Shown one piece after another: positions 42,630 through 56,583 of a stretch of DNA of 64,000 nucleotides. The translations under genes were made by a program, and so were the position numbers. The stretch's first letter is position 1, and every line of letters starts with the position of its first letter. The stretch lies in sequence record PQ613263. The stretch is one strand, 5' to 3'. Below the pieces are notes generated by a model, which was not told where the DNA came from, did not search any database, and saw nothing but the letters and a program-made list of their open reading frames with translations. The stretch comes from Shigella phage Moonfish.

Positions 42630-45293
42630 TTAATTACCTTTCAGTTTATTTAGACGATTACGGTAGAGGGACTTAAACCCAGGAATATCATCTGGATGTT
42701 TCTTGAGATACCTGACTAAGCTAGTCAAGTCCAGGTTTTGCAGGATGTCATCCTTATTCCAGCTATAACAAAATAAAGCTTTGTACTTGCTGAGTATTTC
42801 GTAATGTTTATGATTACGTGGGTTAGTCATTGTCATGTATGGCACTAAGTCTTCCTCTGACTTAATGTAACCCATTTCAATGAGCTTCCTCTCTTTACTC
42901 CGATGATTTCTTAGGAAATCATACGCCCATTCATACTCTGGATTAAAAATCAGATTTTGTAGTGGTTTGAATGTTAGACCAAGAATACCGAGGATTTCCC
43001 AATACTCTCTGTCATCCAATCCTATGTACTCAGTAATACCAATACGCTGTTCAGTGACATACTTCTTGAATCCCTTACTGGAAATAACAGACATCAATTC
43101 ACTGAGTCGAATATCGTCAATGTGAATAGCACCACGTCGTTTAGCCTTGTTAACTTCGATTTGATTGCGACAGACAACAGTTTCTGCTTTCATCTCATCG
43201 GACAACTCATACCATTTCCACATGGTTCCAATCCGGGCATTATCTGGTCTACCAGAACTAACCTGATTGGCTAGTACGTAGTACTTAGGCTGTTCCACTT
43301 CAACGAAACCAGATTTCTCATGGTAGATTGGGTCAGCAAACTCCTTCTGGATATACGGTTTATATATCCGATCTCCATTTTCATCTCGTACAAGAGTAGT
43401 ACCTAGTACTGCATTCAATGAAATTAGAGCATTGGTTTTACCCCCTGCTTTGGTTTTATTGTCAGCTAGTGTCTTAGCTCGATTCTCGGCAGCTATCCTA
43501 GCTTGCTCCTTACGGAAGTTAGTTGGTTTGTCCCACTCATTGTATTGAGTAAGGTCAATTACCCGATAACCCATAGCAGTGAATTTAGCTACAGCCTCCT
43601 CTGCTGCACCCTTCTTAGAACTAACGTTGTCCCACTCATTGTATTGAGTAAGGTCAATTACCCGATAACCCATAGCAGTGAATTTAGCTACAGCCTCCTC
43701 TGCTGCACCCTTCTTAGAACTAACGACGTGAACAAAAGCTGTACGCTCCAGGTCACCTCGGTTGTACTCAGGGAAGTATGAGAAAGAGTCTGCACAATCA
43801 GATAAACGGCGAGTAACTACAACGTTCTTGGTAGTGAATATACCAATACCTAGATGGGAGTGATAATCCACCTTAAAGTAATCAGTAAGTTTACCTTTCA
43901 CCAGTTTGGTACAGCTACCCTGGTTCATTATGTAACCTGACCACTTAATACCAGTAGCTTTTAAAGCAGCAATCTGAGGTAAGTGCAGATGGCGATATAC
44001 GAATCCCTGGAATGGATAGCGTGTACCATTTGCACGAGTATGCTTAAGAGCACTTATAGCCTTACTATACAGTTTTTTAAGACCTGCATATTCAGGACGA
44101 GCTAGTAATGCTTTATTGGATAAATTACGCCAGTGTTTGATGTGGTGCTTGCGTTGCTTAGCCCATAAACTAGAGGACATATAGCGTTGAACAATAGGGT
44201 CTGTAACAGCAAGTAGGAAAGGTGGATACCTCCAGAAGCAGGAAGAAGCTTTAGAAGCATATTCTTCAATCTGCTTAATAGCTTCAGGAATCTTAGCCTT
44301 AATCTCTTTCTCCATACGGTCTACTAAATCTACACATAGAGCAGTAATACCATCGTCGGTTAACTTCTGGTTAGACAGGGTTTCTCGACTAGGAGCAATA
44401 GCTAAGGTATCCGGTGCAGCCTGAACTACTAAATTAGAAGCACCAATGATGTTCATAAAGTTGAGAATAAGACCTACAGCTTCTTCACTAGCTGGGCTGG
44501 ATACTATTGGGTACATTACATTACCGTAACGAATAAAGATGTTACTGCTACCCATATAGTTTTGATACCAGCTATCAGACATATCATATGAACCAGGTTT
44601 AAATGACATACCTAACGTAGGTAATAAAGTGTAGTCACCTTGTAGAATACTATTACCCGTTTCTTCACGAGTGAGTTTGGGGGTACTAAGCTCAGCCTTA
44701 ATTTCACCGTTAAACACAATAGATTTGATGTAGTGAATAAAGGTACTTACGTCGTGTTTACCTAGCTGGAATTTAACTTCCAGACCGGATTCCTCAGTAG
44801 GAATACCAGTAACGATAGGAACAATACCTGGTTTACCATCATTCTCTATTGCAGCTTTAGCTACGTTATATACCGACATCTTTCCTTGGTTCCACGAAGT
44901 AACCTGGAAGCTATCTGTATAAGCGAATGGGGACTTACATCCCAGACCAAATCCACCAGTAACACTACTGTTGGACTTCTTGGTAGATGCACCATAGACA
45001 CCATAAATGGAACCAATGAGTTCATCTGGGATACCGTTACCAAAGTCACGGAAGGTAATAAAGTTGTCTGTATCAATAGTAATACGGATAGGAGTATCAG
45101 TCTTACCTGCTTCAATATGAGCATCCCAACTGTTACAGATAGTCTCACGGACTACTGCCAGAGTAGGATTGTTATATAGGGAAGTACTTAATACGTGAAA
45201 GAATGCCGGGTCATCAGAGATGCCAAAGGCGATTGCTTCTTTACCACCCAGTGTCGCTGAAGTGGCTGATTGATTAGTATCTGCAACTAACAT
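42630..45293 (-). CDS. rIIA-like protein with N-terminal GHKL ATPase domain
   Basis: GHKL motifs ETICNSWDA, RDFGNGI, GGFGLGCKS; 887 aa; contains an in-frame 33-aa tandem duplication. Confidence 0.55.
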   Translation of the reverse strand: MLVADTNQSATSATLGGKEAIAFGISDDPAFFHVLSTSLYNNPTLAVVRETICNSWDAHIEAGKTDTPIRITIDTDNFITFRDFGNGIPDELIGSIYGVYGASTKKSNSSVTGGFGLGCKSPFAYTDSFQVTSWNQGKMSVYNVAKAAIENDGKPGIVPIVTGIPTEESGLEVKFQLGKHDVSTFIHYIKSIVFNGEIKAELSTPKLTREETGNSILQGDYTLLPTLGMSFKPGSYDMSDSWYQNYMGSSNIFIRYGNVMYPIVSSPASEEAVGLILNFMNIIGASNLVVQAAPDTLAIAPSRETLSNQKLTDDGITALCVDLVDRMEKEIKAKIPEAIKQIEEYASKASSCFWRYPPFLLAVTDPIVQRYMSSSLWAKQRKHHIKHWRNLSNKALLARPEYAGLKKLYSKAISALKHTRANGTRYPFQGFVYRHLHLPQIAALKATGIKWSGYIMNQGSCTKLVKGKLTDYFKVDYHSHLGIGIFTTKNVVVTRRLSDCADSFSYFPEYNRGDLERTAFVHVVSSKKGAAEEAVAKFTAMGYRVIDLTQYNEWDNVSSKKGAAEEAVAKFTAMGYRVIDLTQYNEWDKPTNFRKEQARIAAENRAKTLADNKTKAGGKTNALISLNAVLGTTLVRDENGDRIYKPYIQKEFADPIYHEKSGFVEVEQPKYYVLANQVSSGRPDNARIGTMWKWYELSDEMKAETVVCRNQIEVNKAKRRGAIHIDDIRLSELMSVISSKGFKKYVTEQRIGITEYIGLDDREYWEILGILGLTFKPLQNLIFNPEYEWAYDFLRNHRSKERKLIEMGYIKSEEDLVPYMTMTNPRNHKHYEILSKYKALFCYSWNKDDILQNLDLTSLVRYLKKHPDDIPGFKSLYRNRLNKLKGN
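43528..43725. repeat. Perfect 99-bp direct tandem duplication (2 copies) inside the rIIA-like CDS
   Basis: Two identical adjacent 99-nt units beginning ttgtcccactcattgtattgagtaaggtc; encodes VSSKKGAAEEAVAKFTAMGYRVIDLTQYNEWDN twice. Confidence 0.9.
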
Positions 45294-47853: not shown

Positions 47854-48060
47854 TTATTCAGCTTCTGCTTCAGGCTTAGCTCCAGACAGTGCTTTAGCTA
47901 CATTACGACGAACAGAGTCGTAACCTACTTCAGTTCGTAGAAGAGAGCCGTCAACAAAAGCAATATCTGCTTTTCCGTCATCGCTGCATTGTACTGTTAC
48001 TACGTTTGCTGCAACTACTGTAAACTTACGACCATTTGCTTTGGTAGTGAATACTGACAT
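47854..48060 (-). CDS. Hypothetical small protein
   Basis: 68-aa ORF. Confidence 0.3.
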   Translation of the reverse strand: MSVFTTKANGRKFTVVAANVVTVQCSDDGKADIAFVDGSLLRTEVGYDSVRRNVAKALSGAKPEAEAE

Positions 48061-48069
48061 GTTGTTTCC

Positions 48070-48576
48070 TTATTTACTGCTTCTCGCAGCTACTGGTTTG
48101 TTTTCCTGGTTATTGTACTTGCCTGTGTATGTGGCAGGTTCTTGAACCAGATGAAATAATACTTGAGCTATCCCGGAACCAGCCGGGATATGTAATTTCT
48201 TACGTCCGTGATAGACCAGTTCAAGGGTAAGATACCCTTTCCATCCTGGTTCAATCACGGTATTGAACACTGATAATGCACGTCTTGCCCATGTAGACTT
48301 ATCGTGAACGATTGCTACACAGGATGGGGACATGTTGAACTTCTCAATGGCTGAAGCCAATGCGAACTTACCGAGATGGTGTGATACCTGTTTTCCATCA
48401 ATGATTTTCACCATTGGAATCAACCCAAATAAGCGATAGAAGGTAATATCTTGTTTGATACGAATATCATAACCAGCTTCACCCAACCCATAGCTTACAC
48501 CATGCTCGGATACCTTACGGTCTGGGACATCCAGTAATTGAGAGGAACGATATAGGGAATTACCGTTAACAACCAT
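48070..48576 (-). CDS. dcd: dCTP deaminase / dUTPase-superfamily protein
   Basis: Motif VIEPGWKGYLTLEL resembles the dCTP deaminase signature; 168 aa. Confidence 0.5.
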   Translation of the reverse strand: MVVNGNSLYRSSQLLDVPDRKVSEHGVSYGLGEAGYDIRIKQDITFYRLFGLIPMVKIIDGKQVSHHLGKFALASAIEKFNMSPSCVAIVHDKSTWARRALSVFNTVIEPGWKGYLTLELVYHGRKKLHIPAGSGIAQVLFHLVQEPATYTGKYNNQENKPVAARSSK

Positions 48577-49751
48577 TATTTCATTCCTTTAGGGATATGA
48601 ACTACCTCCCCAAAAGGTACGGTAGCACTAGGATTATTCAGAACACACCATATGATAGGGATATCAAATGGTAATTCCTCCATTGGATGAACATACATAT
48701 CGGAGAATATGATTGCAGCGGTTGGCTTATTCTTAATAATCCAATCCCGTACTGGCACAAGACTTGTACCACCACGGCCCGTAATCTTAATCTCTTCAAA
48801 AGTATCTTCTTCAGTGATGTCTATTTCTTCTTGGATAATATCGTCGAAGGTAATTAAGGACATCTTCTTAGGATTGAACTGGCTCTTAACGTAGGCAACC
48901 TCAGAGTTAAAACGCAGAGAGTCAGCACTACTAATAGAACCAGATACATCCTCAAAGTAAGCTAAGTGTCGTAAGCGTCCTTCATCATCTTCCAGGGATG
49001 GTAGATAGATGTCAGTGAAACGACGGTTAGGTCTGGCCCACGTATAACGTGAGTCATCAATGTCAGTGAAGAAATCCATCAAGACTTCCTGCCATGGAAC
49101 TACTGGCTTAAGGAATTGGGTAATAACCTCTTCCATATGACCAGCACCCTTACCAGGCATTGTTCCACCAGCCATCTTCTGGCTTTGCATCGCACGTACT
49201 ACGTTGTTGACAACAGCACCCTGGGACTGCCCCGGAGTGGGAGCTTTCATGTCGCCAGCAAGACCTGCTCCAGCACCCCCTGACGGCTGCTGCCTTTTCT
49301 GAGGGTTCTTCATCAGGTCATCGTAGATGTCTTCTTCAACCCATCCTTTGTATTGAGGGTCTTTGCAAATACCTTCGTCGATACCAGTGAACTTGTAACC
49401 ATCTTCCTCTAACTGAAGATTAATGAAGTGGTCACATGCCTGGTTCCAGACTTCTGGGTCACGGCTTCCACATCGGATGCCATGCAGATATGCCACATGC
49501 CAGAGTTCGTGCATTAATACGGTTTCTCTGGCATCTGGACACATCCAGACAAAGAAATCGGGATTGAAATGGAGTTCTATCCCATCAGTACATGCAGTGG
49601 GACAATCCTCACGTCTCCATGAGAATTTAAGGCTACACAGCAATGAACCAAAAAACGCTGCGCTGCGTCCAAGAAATGCGTTGGCTTGTATTCTATCGTA
49701 CTCCCTCATTAACTGTTCATCAGTGAGGGTATGTGAAGGTATGTTATTCAT
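48576..49751 (-). CDS. VWA-domain protein with N-terminal metallopeptidase-like domain (partner of the MoxR-like ATPase)
   Basis: HExxH in LMHELWHVAYLH; MIDAS-like FEDVSGSIS; 391 aa. Confidence 0.45.
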   Translation of the reverse strand: MNNIPSHTLTDEQLMREYDRIQANAFLGRSAAFFGSLLCSLKFSWRREDCPTACTDGIELHFNPDFFVWMCPDARETVLMHELWHVAYLHGIRCGSRDPEVWNQACDHFINLQLEEDGYKFTGIDEGICKDPQYKGWVEEDIYDDLMKNPQKRQQPSGGAGAGLAGDMKAPTPGQSQGAVVNNVVRAMQSQKMAGGTMPGKGAGHMEEVITQFLKPVVPWQEVLMDFFTDIDDSRYTWARPNRRFTDIYLPSLEDDEGRLRHLAYFEDVSGSISSADSLRFNSEVAYVKSQFNPKKMSLITFDDIIQEEIDITEEDTFEEIKITGRGGTSLVPVRDWIIKNKPTAAIIFSDMYVHPMEELPFDIPIIWCVLNNPSATVPFGEVVHIPKGMK

Positions 49752-49845
49752 TAAGATGCTCCATGATTAGGGTGATAGCCATACAGTTTTTCAGCTGCTT
49801 TTCTAGCGTCTATGGCATCCTGCTTTTCAGCAAAAGTGCCTAAAC

Positions 49846-50199
49846 TTACCAGATGGAATCTCGTTTATGCCAGTACACCCCAGTTACTCCACTGGAATTA
49901 GTTACACGTTTCTTTTGGTTTCTACTGTTAGTTTTGCTGTCCACCAACCTAAAGTTACTTAATAGATTGTTAACCCTATTATGGTCTATGTGGTCAACCT
50001 GCATTCCCTTTGGTATAGGTCCATTGTGCATTTCCCATATGACACGATGCACTTTGTAGCTTTTGCACTTATAGTTAAAACACAGATACCCATCACCATT
50101 TAAAGAGCCAACCCTGCCCCCAGCAATGGCCCTTGAGGACAATGTAACTTTCCAGAATAGCTCACCATTTTCATAAACGAGTATGTCATTCCAGTTCAT
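49846..50199 (-). CDS. HNH homing endonuclease (free-standing)
   Basis: HRVIWEMHNGPIPKGMQVDHIDHNRVNNLLSNFRLV; wedged between the AAA and VWA genes. Confidence 0.55.
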   Translation of the reverse strand: MNWNDILVYENGELFWKVTLSSRAIAGGRVGSLNGDGYLCFNYKCKSYKVHRVIWEMHNGPIPKGMQVDHIDHNRVNNLLSNFRLVDSKTNSRNQKKRVTNSSGVTGVYWHKRDSIW

Positions 50200-50202
50200 A
50201 GA

Positions 50203-51255
50203 TTATCCGTGAATGTAACGAGAGATATTGGCAGCAGCCTTACGCCATTCAGGGGTAGCCTGAATTTCTGGTAATGCTCTACCTACTGTACGGAAGTACA
50301 GAATCTTATGAGTGAACGTTTTAAAGCGTTCAATGTACTGAAGAACATCAGCGAAGTTTTCTTCAGTAGTTTTGTTAGCCAGATGGTTAACGGTAGCCCA
50401 ACACAGGTTGTTATCTTCCGGTAGTGCACAGCCCATAGGGTCTTTGACTACTTTCTCAATCGTAATCATACGATTGTATACCTGAGTGAACTGAACAAAT
50501 TCTGTAGCCTTACCAGCAGTAACGTGGCCTGCATAATAGATAGAATCTTCATCAGGCAGAGCACCTTCTGGTCGGTTCTTGAGGTCTTTATTAACAAAGT
50601 CCCAGGTACGAGGGCAACAGAATGTTTTGTTCTTGTGGGCAGGATCGAAGTCATGCAGATAACCAGGGTTAGCATGTAAGAATGCAACCAGACGCTCGTC
50701 CCATTCCTGTGGAATCATTACGTCTTCAACAAAGATGTCGAAGTTAAGTTCCATTTCGAAGTGGACAACTCGAGACTGCATTGCAGTACCTAGTGGGTTA
50801 ACAATGGCACGGTCAGTAGCTTTGTTACCAGCACAGACAATCATCACATTAGGGTGAAGTTTTTTCTGACCAGTCATGCGGTCAAGAATTAGTTTGTATG
50901 CAGCAGCTACTACTTCTTTCTTAGCTGAGTTGAACTCATCAAGGAACAGGAGCCATCCATTGTAACCTTCAGGGATTTCATCCCCTTCAATTGGGAACAA
51001 GTCAGCGAATGGAATAAACTCTGCACGGTCACCATTACGGAATGGTAGACCTGATAGGTCTTCTGGGGCAGAAGTAGACAGACGATGGTCAATCAGCTTC
51101 ATACCAAATTCATCTGCAACAGAACGAATAATTGCAGATTTACCCATGCCTGGTGATGAAGTCAGGAACGGTACGTTACCTGCTTGTAAGGCACGGATAA
51201 TAAAGTTACGGGCTTGACGTGTGTTACATACAGTCAAGGAGTCAATGCTTGCCAT
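50203..51255 (-). CDS. MoxR-like AAA+ ATPase
   Basis: Walker A SSPGMGKSAI, Walker B LLFLDEFN; 350 aa. Confidence 0.55.
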   Translation of the reverse strand: MASIDSLTVCNTRQARNFIIRALQAGNVPFLTSSPGMGKSAIIRSVADEFGMKLIDHRLSTSAPEDLSGLPFRNGDRAEFIPFADLFPIEGDEIPEGYNGWLLFLDEFNSAKKEVVAAAYKLILDRMTGQKKLHPNVMIVCAGNKATDRAIVNPLGTAMQSRVVHFEMELNFDIFVEDVMIPQEWDERLVAFLHANPGYLHDFDPAHKNKTFCCPRTWDFVNKDLKNRPEGALPDEDSIYYAGHVTAGKATEFVQFTQVYNRMITIEKVVKDPMGCALPEDNNLCWATVNHLANKTTEENFADVLQYIERFKTFTHKILYFRTVGRALPEIQATPEWRKAAANISRYIHG

Positions 51256-51289
51256 TTACTTACTCTCCTAAAGGTAATGGAATTACTAA

Positions 51290-51619
51290 TTAAGATTTAA
51301 CACAAGGGTATGCTTTATTAACGGCGTAGCTCATGATTGCGAATGAGGACTGCATCGATAATACTTCAGGGTCATACACAATTACTCGCGCTACACGATC
51401 GGTGATGCTTCCGTACTTCATTCCTTCCGGGATACAGTTTTCAGTACTATCCCCATACAATTGAACCATGCCAGAGAAGTAACCTTGTAGGAAATGCCTA
51501 CCAGCGTCATTGTGGTAAGCTTGTGCAGCCTTAATAAGGTTATCTGCTGAGCCAGATGCCTTAGCAGAAAAGGACAGAGCTGACAAAGCTACTACAGCAA
51601 CAGCAATTAAAGTTTTCAT
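51290..51619 (-). CDS. Secreted/periplasmic small protein
   Basis: Signal peptide MKTLIAVAVVALSALSFSAKASG; 109 aa. Confidence 0.4.
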   Translation of the reverse strand: MKTLIAVAVVALSALSFSAKASGSADNLIKAAQAYHNDAGRHFLQGYFSGMVQLYGDSTENCIPEGMKYGSITDRVARVIVYDPEVLSMQSSFAIMSYAVNKAYPCVKS

Positions 51620-51805
51620 TTAGTTACCTTTTAACTCGTTGAGTTGAAGTACTCCGGTAGGGGTTAATGACCACCCAAGACCAGCATTGAACTGTACTAA
51701 GCCCAGTTTCTTAAGAGACTGTGCGGTTTTGTTATTACGGTTGCTGGTGGCAGAACCACCTTGAACCATGCGAAGGAATATTACTTGGGACTGGGTAAGT
51801 TTCAT
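51620..51805 (-). CDS. Hypothetical small protein
   Basis: 61-aa ORF. Confidence 0.25.
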   Translation of the reverse strand: MKLTQSQVIFLRMVQGGSATSNRNNKTAQSLKKLGLVQFNAGLGWSLTPTGVLQLNELKGN

Positions 51806-52994: not shown

Positions 52995-53222
52995 TTAACT
53001 TAATGCATAATCCGTTTCAAGAATGTCCTGCCAGAGGCTGTCATCCAGCTTACCCGCAGAGAACTCTTGTCCCAGTACCTGAGATAGGATGAAGCCCAGC
53101 AAGTCACTCTTAGCAATGTCAGATAGAATCTGATTGTACTGACGACGTAGGTCATTACCATAGTTAGGATGACAACGAAAACCATTAGTTAAACGAGTCG
53201 TTAGCTCGCCCTTACCTTCCAT
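52995..53222 (-). CDS. RNA polymerase II large subunit, C-terminal segment (downstream exon or fragment)
   Basis: Ends WQDILETDYALS, resembling the T7 RNAP C-terminus LRDILESDFAFA; overlaps the HNH ORF stop. Confidence 0.5.
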   Translation of the reverse strand: MEGKGELTTRLTNGFRCHPNYGNDLRRQYNQILSDIAKSDLLGFILSQVLGQEFSAGKLDDSLWQDILETDYALS

Positions 53223-53856
53223 GATTAACATGAAAGCCATATGTAGCATCTGCTTGTTTACGAGCAAGCATTGCCTCCTCAAGTGTGTCGTACGTACCCA
53301 GACCGATCTGTTTGCGATTGACTGTGATGTGTGCCTGAAATCTACCAGAAGGCAGTATTCTCACACCGTTCACTTTGCTTGAAGTATTACTAGATAAACT
53401 CATATTCATCTGGTTCTGTCTGCTGGTTACATTTCTCAAATTAGACCAACGATTGTCGTTTCTAGTATGATTGATGTGGTCCACCTGGTTAGGTGTTTCC
53501 CCAGTTTCCATTATCCAGATTATTCGATGTAGTAAGTACTCTTTGCGGCCCAGGCTAACGGATAGATACCCTTCTTTGTGAGGATACCCCACAATTGTTC
53601 CGGCTAACCCACTGGCAGAGTCATAACGATGAGTCACTAGCCCACTATCCCTGTCATACCTTAAAACCTTCTGCAAAGATTCTTGGGTAATATTACCCAA
53701 GTTTATTATTAGGTTTTTACAGGTAGAGCATAGATGACCTATTGGACTCTTTCTAGCATCATAGAAGTTACAAACAAACTCATTAGAGCATTGCTTGCAA
53801 CTACAGATAGCTGTGTACTTACCAGTTTTACGTAATATTTGAGAGTTATCTAACAT
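53212..53856 (-). CDS. HNH-AP2 homing endonuclease inserted in the RNA polymerase II large-subunit gene
   Basis: HNH motif HRIIWIMETGETPNQVDHINHTRNDNRWSNL plus AP2-like NGVRILPSGRFQAHITVNRKQIGLGTYDTLEEA; own RBS. Confidence 0.6.
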   Translation of the reverse strand: MLDNSQILRKTGKYTAICSCKQCSNEFVCNFYDARKSPIGHLCSTCKNLIINLGNITQESLQKVLRYDRDSGLVTHRYDSASGLAGTIVGYPHKEGYLSVSLGRKEYLLHRIIWIMETGETPNQVDHINHTRNDNRWSNLRNVTSRQNQMNMSLSSNTSSKVNGVRILPSGRFQAHITVNRKQIGLGTYDTLEEAMLARKQADATYGFHVNHGR

Positions 53857-54148
53857 ATGGATTCCTTAGTAATTTTGCATACAATTTCAGATTGTATCCT
53901 AACCAAGGAAGTAAGTCTCCAATTTTCACTGGAGTATCGGACTATATCATCACCCACTAATCAGTGGGGCAAGGCGCTTGGGTGGTCACTTGACTCACCT
54001 ACTCTACTCACATACGAAATGCTTTCGATAGTCTCTGAACCTTCCCTCATAGAGGGCTTGGCTGCTGATTGGCATATCCATAGGACTTAGCTTTCCAGCA
54101 ATTCACCTTGTTTTCGACACGGATTACTCCGTGAAGGATCATTTATGT

Positions 54149-55180
54149 TTAATCATGTACAGTCAATACAGGGAATGGCTTCTTAGGTAAAGTGTCCAGC
54201 ATGTCTGCTACTACCTGACGGTCAACCATAGCAATAGTGCCTGGGTCGAGATAGTCGATAATAGACATAGATAAGAATCCAGACTTCTCGTAGTGTTCCC
54301 ACAAGGTCTGTACCATTTCCATGTTACCTTCAATCTCCCCATACTCTGCTGGGCCTGTGTCGCAGAGTTCACGAACAGCAGCAACCAGGTTAGCATCGAA
54401 GTTACAACGACGCAGCATCTCGCGTACCACCATCCCATCAATAGAGTGGGTGATGTTAGCAGAGAGCATACGAGTCTTCTCTTCAGTACCCTGAACCATG
54501 CGGGTAATGTCGAATGGTTTACCTAAGAAGTTAACAGTCTGTACTTCTGGAACCATGACCTTAATGACGGCATGGAAGTTGTCAGACAATACCCATACGT
54601 AACGGTTAGCATCCGGGTTACCACATTGCAGTAAGAACTTGTTCAATGCCCAAGGCCCACTAGCAACAGTTTCCATTACATTCTCAAAAGTCTTGAGACG
54701 GATACCCTCACCGAATACTTCTTTAGGCTTAGCTTCTGAACCGTAGAATGCAGTCATAACTGCCTGCTTAGTGTCACTACGCTTAATACGAGATGCTTCA
54801 CCAAGGATGTCCAACATCTTGTGATAGATAACTGTATAAGCATCACGACGTAATGGCTTACCGTTTTCACCCATGTAGTTAACTACGTTACACAGTTCAG
54901 CAGCAGAACGGTCACCAGTCAGGCAAGCCAGTAACTGCAAGCCTGATGATGTAGCATCCAGAGCTACGGCATAGCCAATAGGCTTACCGGCTTTCATATC
55001 TTTCCATGCGTTTACACCTGCATAGAACAATGCGGATTCTTCAGCTTCATCTACCAGATTAAGCAGGTTAGCTTCGTTTTCATCGAACCAGCTAATACGT
55101 TCATCCCATGTTTTCTTATCCAGACCCATGTTATTCGCAATATCAATCTTTAAATATTCTTTCGCTGTGAAAAGCTGCAT
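54149..55180 (-). CDS. T7-like single-subunit RNA polymerase, N4 RNAP II large subunit (gp16-like), N-terminal segment ending at motif C
   Basis: Motif A ALDATSSGLQ (T7 DGSCSGIQ), motif B RSDTKQAVMTAFYGSE (T7 RSVTKRSVMTLAYGSK); ORF stops right after VHD (T7 motif C IHDSFG). Confidence 0.7.
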   Translation of the reverse strand: MQLFTAKEYLKIDIANNMGLDKKTWDERISWFDENEANLLNLVDEAEESALFYAGVNAWKDMKAGKPIGYAVALDATSSGLQLLACLTGDRSAAELCNVVNYMGENGKPLRRDAYTVIYHKMLDILGEASRIKRSDTKQAVMTAFYGSEAKPKEVFGEGIRLKTFENVMETVASGPWALNKFLLQCGNPDANRYVWVLSDNFHAVIKVMVPEVQTVNFLGKPFDITRMVQGTEEKTRMLSANITHSIDGMVVREMLRRCNFDANLVAAVRELCDTGPAEYGEIEGNMEMVQTLWEHYEKSGFLSMSIIDYLDPGTIAMVDRQVVADMLDTLPKKPFPVLTVHD

Positions 55181-55181
55181 C

Positions 55182-55763
55182 TTAAGCTCCTAGTTTCCAC
55201 GTATAGCCATATGCTTGTGCATATGTACCAATAATTGATTGTTTAATGTTTGATGGTATTCCATTTACACTGCGTGCTGCTGCACTCAGTGAATGGAATG
55301 TCTGGATGTAAATACCATCCAGTGTGTATTGCTCTACAGGGATAGCAGATTTGGTATTAATACCGTTGATTGCATCAGAGTAATACCTTCTTACATTGGC
55401 GTTTACCGTAACAACACGAATGTTATCCAGTGAGTAACCTTTATAGTCATCCAGCCTGTCAAGGCTTGGCTTCAGGTTGGTTGGGTAATCCTCTATTACC
55501 CATTTATCATACAGAGTGTGAAACTCTTTCTTTGATAACACCCATTGTTCTAGTTCCTCTTTAGTAAAAGTAACAGGATTAAACCCTTTCTTCTTGGTTC
55601 TGCTTACGCAACCGGAGTACATTTGATTAATGACTCCTTGTTTGGAATGGATAAAACGTTTCACACAGTCTTTACAGTCTGCTCTTACACCCTGTTTACC
55701 TGTGGACTGTTTATTGAACATGTCCAGAGGCAAGTTCTGCTTACATACTGAACATGTCTTCAT
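55182..55763 (-). CDS. Putative homing-endonuclease-like DNA-binding protein (Cys-rich N-terminus, NUMOD-like HTH C-terminus)
   Basis: CSVCKQ...CKDC at N-terminus; C-terminal FHSLSAAARSVNGIPSNIKQSIIG...GYTWK; stop/start within 1-3 nt of both neighbours. Confidence 0.35.
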   Translation of the reverse strand: MKTCSVCKQNLPLDMFNKQSTGKQGVRADCKDCVKRFIHSKQGVINQMYSGCVSRTKKKGFNPVTFTKEELEQWVLSKKEFHTLYDKWVIEDYPTNLKPSLDRLDDYKGYSLDNIRVVTVNANVRRYYSDAINGINTKSAIPVEQYTLDGIYIQTFHSLSAAARSVNGIPSNIKQSIIGTYAQAYGYTWKLGA

Positions 55764-55764
55764 A

Positions 55765-56583
55765 TTAATCCTCGTTTACTAACTCTTTATCTGCGAACTC
55801 TATAACTGCCTTATTGTAAGAGGTTCCCGCATAGTTAATATGGTATCCACATGCATATGTTCTTCCCCTCTTATCAAATTTATGTGCTAGTGAGAAGTTA
55901 TTACCTTCTTTGGTCACTAACTCCATTACTTCCTTAGCTGTACGGCTGTACTTCTCAAAGGCTTTAACTCGTTTCTCATAGTCCTGACGGGTTTCACCCT
56001 CTTTGGGTTTATCCATGTTAGGACGAGAGTCTTTTACATAGTTGGCAACGTCCCAGTTAATACAGAGTCGTTGGTTGTTCATACGGTTAATGTGGTCAAG
56101 GCAGACGTCCATCTCATGATGGTTCTTCTTGAGGATGATTGAGCCTTTAGATTCATAGTAGCCAGTGTCCCGATTAGTCAGGACTGGCTTAGGCTTACTG
56201 ACGATAGGTAATGGATACTGGAATGCCTCCAGTTCCATCTGAACATCTTCACTAATCTCATAAATAACACCGAACTTGTCGATGGTAGGGTCATAGTTGA
56301 AGCAGTCATTCTCTGCCATCTTATACAGACAGTCAGCGATATACTGAGCGTCATCTGAGTGACTCATGAGAGAGCCAATCATAGTCTGAATGTCAGCACG
56401 TTTATGTAGGGCAATCTGCACCATTGCATCAATGAGCAGCTTATAATCAATTTCTAAATAGGCGGCGAATGCCTTAAAGTCAATTTCTTTGGAGTCCTCA
56501 AATTCCTTCCTCATGCGAGGGAGTAATTGGTTTTTGTTGAAAAGGATTTCAAGTTGCTTCTGATGTTCAATAGATGAGTACAT
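55765..56583 (-). CDS. RNA polymerase II small subunit (N4 gp15-like)
   Basis: 272-aa ORF immediately upstream of the large subunit; sizes match the N4 two-subunit RNAP II. Confidence 0.45.
   Translation of the reverse strand: MYSSIEHQKQLEILFNKNQLLPRMRKEFEDSKEIDFKAFAAYLEIDYKLLIDAMVQIALHKRADIQTMIGSLMSHSDDAQYIADCLYKMAENDCFNYDPTIDKFGVIYEISEDVQMELEAFQYPLPIVSKPKPVLTNRDTGYYESKGSIILKKNHHEMDVCLDHINRMNNQRLCINWDVANYVKDSRPNMDKPKEGETRQDYEKRVKAFEKYSRTAKEVMELVTKEGNNFSLAHKFDKRGRTYACGYHINYAGTSYNKAVIEFADKELVNED

Follow-up and report, generated by a model that had tools for sequence, protein, structure and literature searches.

The gp24/gp25 core gene pair of the N4-like Shigella phage Moonfish and the HNH endonuclease gene in its spacer

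A 64,000-nt stretch of the genome of Shigella phage Moonfish (record PQ613263), called the window here and used for all coordinates, contains a gene for a MoxR-like AAA+ ATPase and a gene for a protein that combines a metallopeptidase-like motif with a VWA domain, and between the two lies a gene for an HNH endonuclease. A first-pass annotation, made from the sequence alone, had described this arrangement as a pair split by the endonuclease gene, which raises the question of what the two partners are and whether the HNH gene belongs to them or is a passenger. We consider it very likely that the locus is the gp24/gp25 core pair of phage N4 and that the gap holds a selfish homing-endonuclease gene which has meanwhile been truncated, the pair itself being a MoxR-class ATPase and its zinc-peptidase/VWA partner. 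The pair, its annotation and an HNH gene at the junction (gp24.1 of phage G7C) are already known, since gp24 and gp25 have been published as core and signature genes and annotated since 2009, and the arrangement is ordinary for this phage group. What the first-pass annotation had missed are the N4 gp24/gp25 identity, the G7C gp24.1 annotation, the truncation of the HNH copy and the fact that the split is functionally empty.

A core gene pair of N4-like phages

The three genes were returned by a six-frame list of open reading frames (ORFs), all on the minus strand and at exactly the coordinates given by the first-pass annotation (Table 1). A megablast search with positions 48000..51700 retrieved 68 phage records at 91–93% DNA identity, nearly all of them Escherichia or Shigella Gamaleyavirus, and by sequence comparison the Moonfish window is that of a G7C-like N4 phage (Gamaleyavirus, Schitoviridae). 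In the annotations of these relatives the two large genes are 'similar to gp24/gp25 from N4', with gp24 described as an ATPase and gp25 as VWA-like, and protein identity to Gamaleyavirus orthologues amounts to 94–98% for intact copies. Furthermore, gp24 and gp25 are neighbours in every Gamaleyavirus locus examined, and the flanking gene order is shared as well, with small gp17.x genes upstream and the dCTP deaminase gene gp26 downstream of the pair. The genes gp24/gp25 of N4 and gp24, gp24.1 and gp25 of G7C are orthologous to those of Moonfish and have the same order, orientation and neighbours, gp24.1 being an HNH gene at the same junction. Distribution counts given below were drawn from one phage collection that includes near-identical genomes.

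The pair is situated within the middle genes and outside the late structural block; the genes for dCTP deaminase and thymidylate synthase follow directly downstream, and then rIIA. In N4-like phages gp24 and gp25 have been counted among 14 core genes and assigned to middle transcripts (PMC4193335), and both have likewise been named as signatures of the proposed family (PMC7650795). The labels 'AAA superfamily ATPase' and 'vWFA superfamily', with function unknown, date from at least 2009 (PMC2784036). Our literature search found no paper in which 'MoxR' is combined with N4-like phages, and nothing relevant on DUF2201/MoxR, on COG3864 or on CRISPRi-ART together with phage N4. The three window proteins had no match in NCBIfam. 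No intrinsic terminator was predicted between the three genes, and sigma-70 promoter-like and terminator-like sites in the region were not more frequent than in shuffled sequence.

Walker A (SPGMGKS, residues 34–40) and Walker B (LLFLDEF, residues 102–108) can be read from the gp24 translation as had been claimed. They had also been called typical of MoxR-family ATPases, a class assignment which stands on the structure model and the homologues of gp24 and not on the Walker motifs alone, as these are insufficient for it. Only the generic AAA model of Pfam (PF00004, E=6e-6) exceeded its threshold for the Moonfish protein. The AAA_3 and AAA_5 searches proposed as a check by the first-pass annotation gave no match and a match of 15.5 bits, below the cut-off of 22, respectively, and bpMoxR reached 13.5 bits. 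Midasin was the sole significant sequence match in the PDB and shares with gp24 a DE(F/L)N.A extension of Walker B. In a confident AlphaFold model built from 35 orthologues (pLDDT 86, pTM 0.82) gp24 lies structurally nearest to dynein, to midasin and to CbbQ and NorQ, which are MoxR ATPases, and the model has insertions in helix 2 and before sensor 1; the conserved segment between strands beta2 and beta3, residues 59–99, is read as the helix-2 insert. Among the 35 phage orthologues, AAA_5 was matched at E<=0.05 by 24 (best 9e-6), bpMoxR by six and AAA_3 by four, while the gp24 profile retrieved bacterial homologues (E 1e-50 to 1e-72) that lie above the AAA_5 cut-off, one of them also above that of AAA_3. 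Model and homologues thus support, by a modest margin, that gp24 is a MoxR-class AAA+ ATPase.

The gp24 gene itself is interrupted in other Gamaleyaviruses by inserts, some of them with HNH ORFs; that of Moonfish is intact. The insertion sites lie after codon 67 (pSb-1, locus L005), after codon 106 (U1G, locus L004; NAN33P5, locus L008) and near codon 216 (NAN33P5). In the U1G record one insert is annotated 'phage intron', and the inserts of U1G, pSb-1 and NAN33P5 gave no Rfam match as group I introns at the gathering score.

For gp25, Pfam matches to DUF2201_N (PF13203, E=3e-55) and to the VWA-like DUF2201 (E=1e-33) bear out both the proposed profile check and the claimed combination of an HExxH motif with a VWA metal-ion-dependent adhesion site (MIDAS). 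The motif HELWH occupies residues 81–85, within HELWHVAYLH (residues 81–90), and DVSGSIS residues 268–274. The MIDAS is complete: D268, S270, S272, T329 and D351 are all invariant in 36 orthologues down to ~50% identity. In the same orthologues H81, E82 and H85 of the HExxHx4H motif are invariant and H90 is at least 90% conserved. The protein has a VWA (Rossmann-like) fold, with the MIDAS domains of NorD and midasin among its structural matches, and VWA_CoxE, to which the partners of the MoxR-like CoxD belong, was matched by five gp25 orthologues. Searched against PDB sequences both singly and as a profile, gp25 gave nothing but a marginal integrin VWA match, and no DNA-binding domain was detected in gp25 by domain searches. 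A mir-44 match in Rfam inside gp25 (22 bits, cut-off 54) was dismissed as chance.

In PHROG the label 'HNH endonuclease' is given to phrog_1314, the family to which gp25 belongs, and the gp25 orthologue bears this name in the GenBank/RefSeq records of Mimir124, PBM-3, VTCCBPA_322, U1G, St11Ph5 and others. The domains of gp25 are DUF2201_N and VWA, with no HNH domain, and the name is apparently an erroneous annotation, which may go back to records like that of Bp4, in which the neighbouring HNH gene was confused with gp25 fragments.

An AAA+ ATPase of the same class adjoining a VWA/MIDAS protein is likewise found in CbbQ-CbbO, NorQ-NorD, CoxD-CoxE, RavA-ViaA and the MoxR/VWA pair of Acidianus two-tailed virus. 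Compared with these, the Moonfish VWA partner carries an additional N-terminal HExxH zincin-like domain (DUF2201_N), whereas gp24 has a distinct C-terminal helical region of ~150 aa and stays below the AAA_3 and AAA_5 cut-offs. The same two-gene architecture is found in jumbo phages of group 2.2, in which a MoxR ATPase is paired with an N-terminal metallopeptidase-vWA protein; a part in virion assembly, together with peptidolytic processing, has been proposed for that pair (Iyer et al. 2021, PMC7824862). We liken the two pairs by this shared two-gene architecture, not by direct homology; N4-like phages are not discussed in that study.

The HNH gene between gp24 and gp25

As the first-pass annotation stated, the HNH gene sits exactly between the partners: it begins 3 nt past the gp24 stop and ends 94 nt ahead of the gp25 ATG. 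It is a free-standing endonuclease gene whose product matches HNH_3 across 46/46 profile positions (E=9e-19), with the catalytic HNH motif intact. Its suspected variability among N4-type relatives was confirmed by a junction probe, which was uninterrupted in 47 records (~33 distinct phages) and split in 11 records from nine distinct phages, namely Bp4, PD38, Uz-1, G7C, Mimir124 and four UE phages. The gene is therefore present in ~9 of 42 distinct related phages, and in PhAPEC7, U1G, pSb-1, NAN33P5 and many others the spacer measures only 4–9 nt. The ~33 HNH-less relatives retain gp24 and gp25 intact, so the HNH gene is a passenger. Two sequence types with ~60% protein identity occur at the same site, the G7C type (gp24.1, 158 aa, HNH_3+AP2) and the Bp4/PD38 type, to which the Moonfish copy belongs; its DNA is 80% identical to the nearest deposited copy, compared with ~92% for the flanks. 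Taken by its sequence and distribution, the gene is a free-standing homing endonuclease gene and a selfish invader of the gp24/gp25 spacer. Of the reported split, the position holds, but a functional meaning does not, because a selfish gene has entered an intergenic spacer and both flanking genes are intact.

Free-standing homing endonuclease genes of T-even phages, known from intronless homing (SegG, MobE, I-TevIII-type HNH), likewise lie in short spacers between conserved genes. The Moonfish HNH gene resembles them in its sporadic occurrence among close relatives and in a flanking tract of co-varying silent substitutions. It differs from them in that the Moonfish copy has no DNA-binding domain and in that homing is predicted here from sequence.

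Alignment of the junction with Bp4, G7C, UE-S5a and Mimir124 revealed that the Moonfish copy has suffered a 31-nt deletion relative to Bp4 and G7C, located inside the AP2 region between two copies of TCTGGTA, a 7-bp direct repeat present in the intact Bp4 sequence. The deletion shifts the frame onto a TAA, and the ORF ends at residue 117 inside the AP2 region (residues 102–141 of the 158-aa G7C-type proteins), with loss of the C-terminal AP2-type DNA-binding domain; the product is a truncated derivative and not a complete member of its family. It falls into a 25-member cluster at 90% identity, in which the other members among those listed (14/24) are all 159 aa long. One of these, P0242 (159 aa), is 98% identical over the shared 117 residues and then continues with ...WYAAISDGTRLVSLGTF.... 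The original 3' end persists out of frame, as read from a translation of 49751..49852 (Table 1). Its old TAA overlaps the gp25 ATG (TAATG), and the remnant includes the gp25 Shine-Dalgarno sequence, GGAG; one reason for its being kept may be that gp25 draws its ribosome-binding site from it. An identical 117-aa product is encoded on one short, separately assembled contig of run SRR32252115, which may come from the same sample, and the Bp4 copy carries a 1-nt frameshift. Because the AP2 DNA-binding domain was lost through the 31-nt deletion, the Moonfish HNH gene is probably a decaying copy. Homing endonuclease genes usually pass through a cycle of invasion and subsequent decay, into which the truncation fits.

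The first ~66 nt of gp25 occur as two alleles. The HNH-linked GAACAGTTAATGAGGGAGTACGATAGA and the GAACAACTCATGCGTGAGTATGACCGT of HNH-less phages both encode EQLMREYDR, and all differences within this stretch are synonymous (e.g. CTC/TTA, CGT/AGG, CGT/AGA); codons 3–10 of gp25 also contain a few amino-acid replacements between the alleles. The allele tracks the HNH gene perfectly, with one form in five HNH-carrying genomes of both HNH types and the other in 13 HNH-less genomes, although the genomes compared are related and non-independent and the count expresses an association rather than a probability. Identity to the HNH-less genomes in bins of 30 nt is 60–80% over the first ~90 nt and roughly 80–100% further in, while the last 60 nt of gp24 show no difference between the two groups. 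Scans of IMG/VR for the two 5' alleles added little, with 1 and 4 contigs only. From this pattern the first ~66 nt of gp25 are probably the recognition region of the homing endonuclease or a co-conversion tract; the pattern would be expected if the endonuclease recognised the gp25 5' end in empty genomes and the carrier allele were resistant or had been co-converted. Most likely, the endonuclease would spread when phages co-infect a cell: it would cut an HNH-less genome within or close to these ~66 nt, and repair would then copy in the HNH gene together with the synonymously recoded and presumably cleavage-resistant gp25 stretch.

Table 1. Coordinates of the features discussed, in order of position in the window
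Feature	Position	Strand	Remarks
rIIA-like gene	42630..45293	minus	
Tandem duplication in the rIIA-like gene	43528..43725		99 bp, 2.0 copies, 100% identity
N4 gp25 orthologue	48576..49751	minus	391 aa; N-terminal zincin-like putative metallopeptidase, C-terminal VWA
First ~66 nt of gp25	49686..49751	minus	HNH-linked allele
Remnant of the original HNH 3' end	49752..49845	minus	out of frame; old frame encodes ...LVSLGTFAEKQDAIDARKAAEKLYGYHPNHGAS and stop, matching the P0242 C-terminus
Free-standing HNH_3 homing-endonuclease gene	49846..50199	minus	117 aa; 3'-truncated derivative of a 159-aa HNH_3+AP2 protein
N4 gp24 orthologue	50203..51255	minus	350 aa, intact; AAA+ ATPase, MoxR/midasin/dynein (AAA_5) class (supported by model)
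Tai4-like ORF	51290..51619	minus	109 aa
RNA polymerase II large-subunit gene (N4 gp16 orthologue)	within 52995..55180	minus	interrupted by the intron
Group I intron in gp16	53183..54150	minus	
Endonuclease ORF in the intron	53212..53856		HNH_3+AP2
Rfam match of the intron	53917..54160		RF00028, 91 bits, E=7e-23
RNA polymerase II subunit gene	54149..55180		
Endonuclease-like ORF	55182..55763	minus	193 aa; free-standing
RNA polymerase II subunit gene	55765..56583		

Related bacterial modules and the possible function of the pair

Relatives of the pair are also present in cellular genomes. A scan with the gp25 alignment over one genome per bacterial or archaeal species yielded 572 confirmed relatives, and 80 loci were kept. 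In 73 of these bacterial loci the gp25 homologue is preceded on its strand by a gene homologous to gp24, and many such loci belong to chromosomes several megabases long, from Acidobacteriota, Burkholderiales, Desulfobacterota, Bacteroidota and other groups. A third conserved gene of ~310 aa stands between the homologues of gp24 and gp25, immediately behind the former, in 47/80 loci and has homologues in 57 loci (for instance, among bacterial loci L013-L088, at 3033..3977 of L041 and 3028..3942 of L047). Its product had no match in Pfam, NCBIfam or PADLOC, and its hidden Markov model found no counterpart among all ORFs of the window. In ~20 acidobacterial loci a gene for RNase HI stands directly downstream of the module. 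PADLOC models gave no match at E<=0.01 for the phage pair or for most of the bacterial homologues tested, and one bacterial ATPase matched IetA weakly (E 1.7e-4). Because NCBIfam gave no match either, the module is not a catalogued defence system, and by homology the phage pair represents, with two genes, a cellular module that is widespread and uncharacterised.

The domains of gp24 and gp25, their conservation and their gene linkage are observed; from CbbQ-CbbO, NorQ-NorD, CoxD-CoxE, RavA-ViaA and midasin we infer a complex of the two proteins, a client and its proteolysis. By analogy with CbbQ, NorQ and RavA, gp24 would form a hexameric ring, and gp25 would serve as its adaptor and effector, with the VWA MIDAS clamping an acidic residue of the client protein and the fused N-terminal zincin-like domain (HExxHx4H) cutting it. 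Together, the two proteins would constitute an ATP-driven, MIDAS-targeted remodelling and processing machine that acts on a phage or host protein complex in the middle phase of infection. A DNA-linked role would be compatible with expression as middle genes and with the neighbouring genes, which are rIIA and those of nucleotide metabolism.

Several points weigh against the reading of the locus as a zinc-peptidase/VWA-MoxR pair invaded by a homing endonuclease gene. Catalysis by the N-terminal domain of gp25 is putative and weakly supported: the peptidase fold is suggested by the Pfam family name, the conserved motif, a weak Foldseek match to selecase (4qhi, E=0.067, prob 0.91) and sub-threshold SprT-like (19.8 bits) and M48 matches of one bacterial homologue only. 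The literature search found no experiment on the function of gp24 or gp25. The HNH target site is derived from the allele association only, and the tract could be pure hitch-hiking; moreover, the truncated HNH protein, with its catalytic motif intact, could keep some activity.

Two alternatives concern the HNH gene. Its co-orientation and probable co-transcription with both neighbours, the overlap of its stop with the gp25 start in full-length relatives, the existence of ternary MoxR-vWA conflict systems with a third effector gene (PMC7159879) and the third gene placed directly after the ATPase gene in 47 sampled bacterial loci could all be taken to mean that it is a functional third component, e.g. 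a nuclease that acts as effector and is regulated by the MoxR-VWA pair or delivered by it, and that its position is adaptive. We regard this as extremely unlikely: most related phages have an intact pair without the gene, it is truncated in Moonfish and frameshifted in Bp4, a group I intron at another place in the Moonfish genome carries homologous HNH_3+AP2 ORFs, and the bacterial third gene is unrelated to it, matching nothing in the window. It is very unlikely that the short ORF results from an error of assembly or sequencing and that the true gene encodes the full-length 159-aa endonuclease. The uniform 159-aa length of the other listed cluster members speaks for such an error, and the Bp4 frameshift could itself be a sequencing error; however, a clean 31-nt deletion flanked by a 7-bp repeat is typical of in vivo slippage and not of homopolymer errors, and the same 117-aa product recurs on the SRR32252115 contig, albeit possibly from the same sample.

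The remaining alternatives concern the pair. Instead of a virion-assembly chaperone, gp24/gp25 could be a replication-linked protease, a SprT/Wss1-like zincin with an AAA+ partner (cf. Wss1-Cdc48, SPRTN-p97), that would free phage DNA of proteins stuck to it, for example gyrase complexes or the virion RNA polymerase delivered by injection. The location of the pair among middle genes immediately upstream of the dCTP deaminase/thymidylate synthase genes (PMC4193335), the SprT-like match and the RNase HI gene downstream of the acidobacterial modules are in favour of this role, but the match lies below the Pfam cut-off in a single homologue, gp25 has no detectable DNA-binding domain, RNase HI is linked to the module in one related clade only, and the sole published proposal for a phage MoxR and peptidase-vWA pair is virion assembly/processing (PMC7824862). 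We therefore hold it to be unlikely. A broader version would see gp24/gp25 as the phage form of the bacterial module, composed of the MoxR-like ATPase, usually the ~310-aa protein, and the DUF2201 zincin-VWA protein, and would make this module a prokaryotic analogue of Wss1-Cdc48 or SPRTN-p97, a protease dependent on ATP and guided by the MIDAS that frees nucleic-acid complexes of proteins by stripping or cleaving them; in N4-like phages it would be required, when middle transcription and replication begin, to rid the genome of host proteins or of the giant RNA polymerase that was injected. This we judge to be decidedly unlikely.

Other inserts, neighbouring genes and significance

Further inserts were found in the genes for RNA polymerase II. 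The large-subunit gene gp16 is interrupted by a group I intron that encodes an HNH_3+AP2 endonuclease (Table 1); exon 1 ends with ...VLTVHD at 54151, and exon 2 has its first nucleotide at 53182. Splicing is predicted to give a product of 405 aa, ...VHDCFRCHPNYG..., that is colinear with the intron-less gp16 of Bp4 (380/405 identical). Among deposited phages the insert is shared by vB_EcoP-ZQ2 only (91% identity), where it is annotated as two RNA polymerase coding sequences and an HNH gene. A g16 intron of G7C-like phages has been shown to splice at ...QAVMTAFYGSEAK... (bioRxiv 10.1101/542787), and the Moonfish intron site differs from this one. A second free-standing endonuclease-like ORF, with a match to phrog_1035 'endonuclease VII' (E=3e-28) and a NUMOD1 domain, lies exactly between the two RNA polymerase II subunit genes and mirrors the position of the HNH gene between gp24 and gp25.

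The rIIA-like gene contains a perfect tandem duplication that adds an in-frame 33-aa repeat, ...SSKKGAAEEAVAKFTAMGYRVIDLTQYNEWD... occurring twice, and that is either a very recent duplication or an assembly artefact. Immediately upstream of gp24, an ORF with an N-terminal signal-peptide-like sequence matches Rap1a/Tai4, a type VI secretion amidase immunity family (PF18602, 29.6 bits, cut-off 27.7), and is annotated 'Tai4' in some relatives. From this match, phage-borne protection of the infected cell against attack by the type VI secretion system is possible.

The new details on the locus are minor and do not alter a specialist's picture of an already described core pair with a selfish insert of a familiar kind. 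The modest additions are a firmer MoxR-class assignment of gp24, the zinc-peptidase motif and MIDAS invariance of gp25 and the bacterial module, usually of three genes, and, as smaller ones, the mechanism of the HNH truncation and the linked gp25 allele. The candidate homing site of the HNH endonuclease could serve as a natural marker-exchange system in G7C-like phages. Since gp24 and gp25 are among the few genes common to all N4-like phages (Schitoviridae), any functional handle on them would be of some value.

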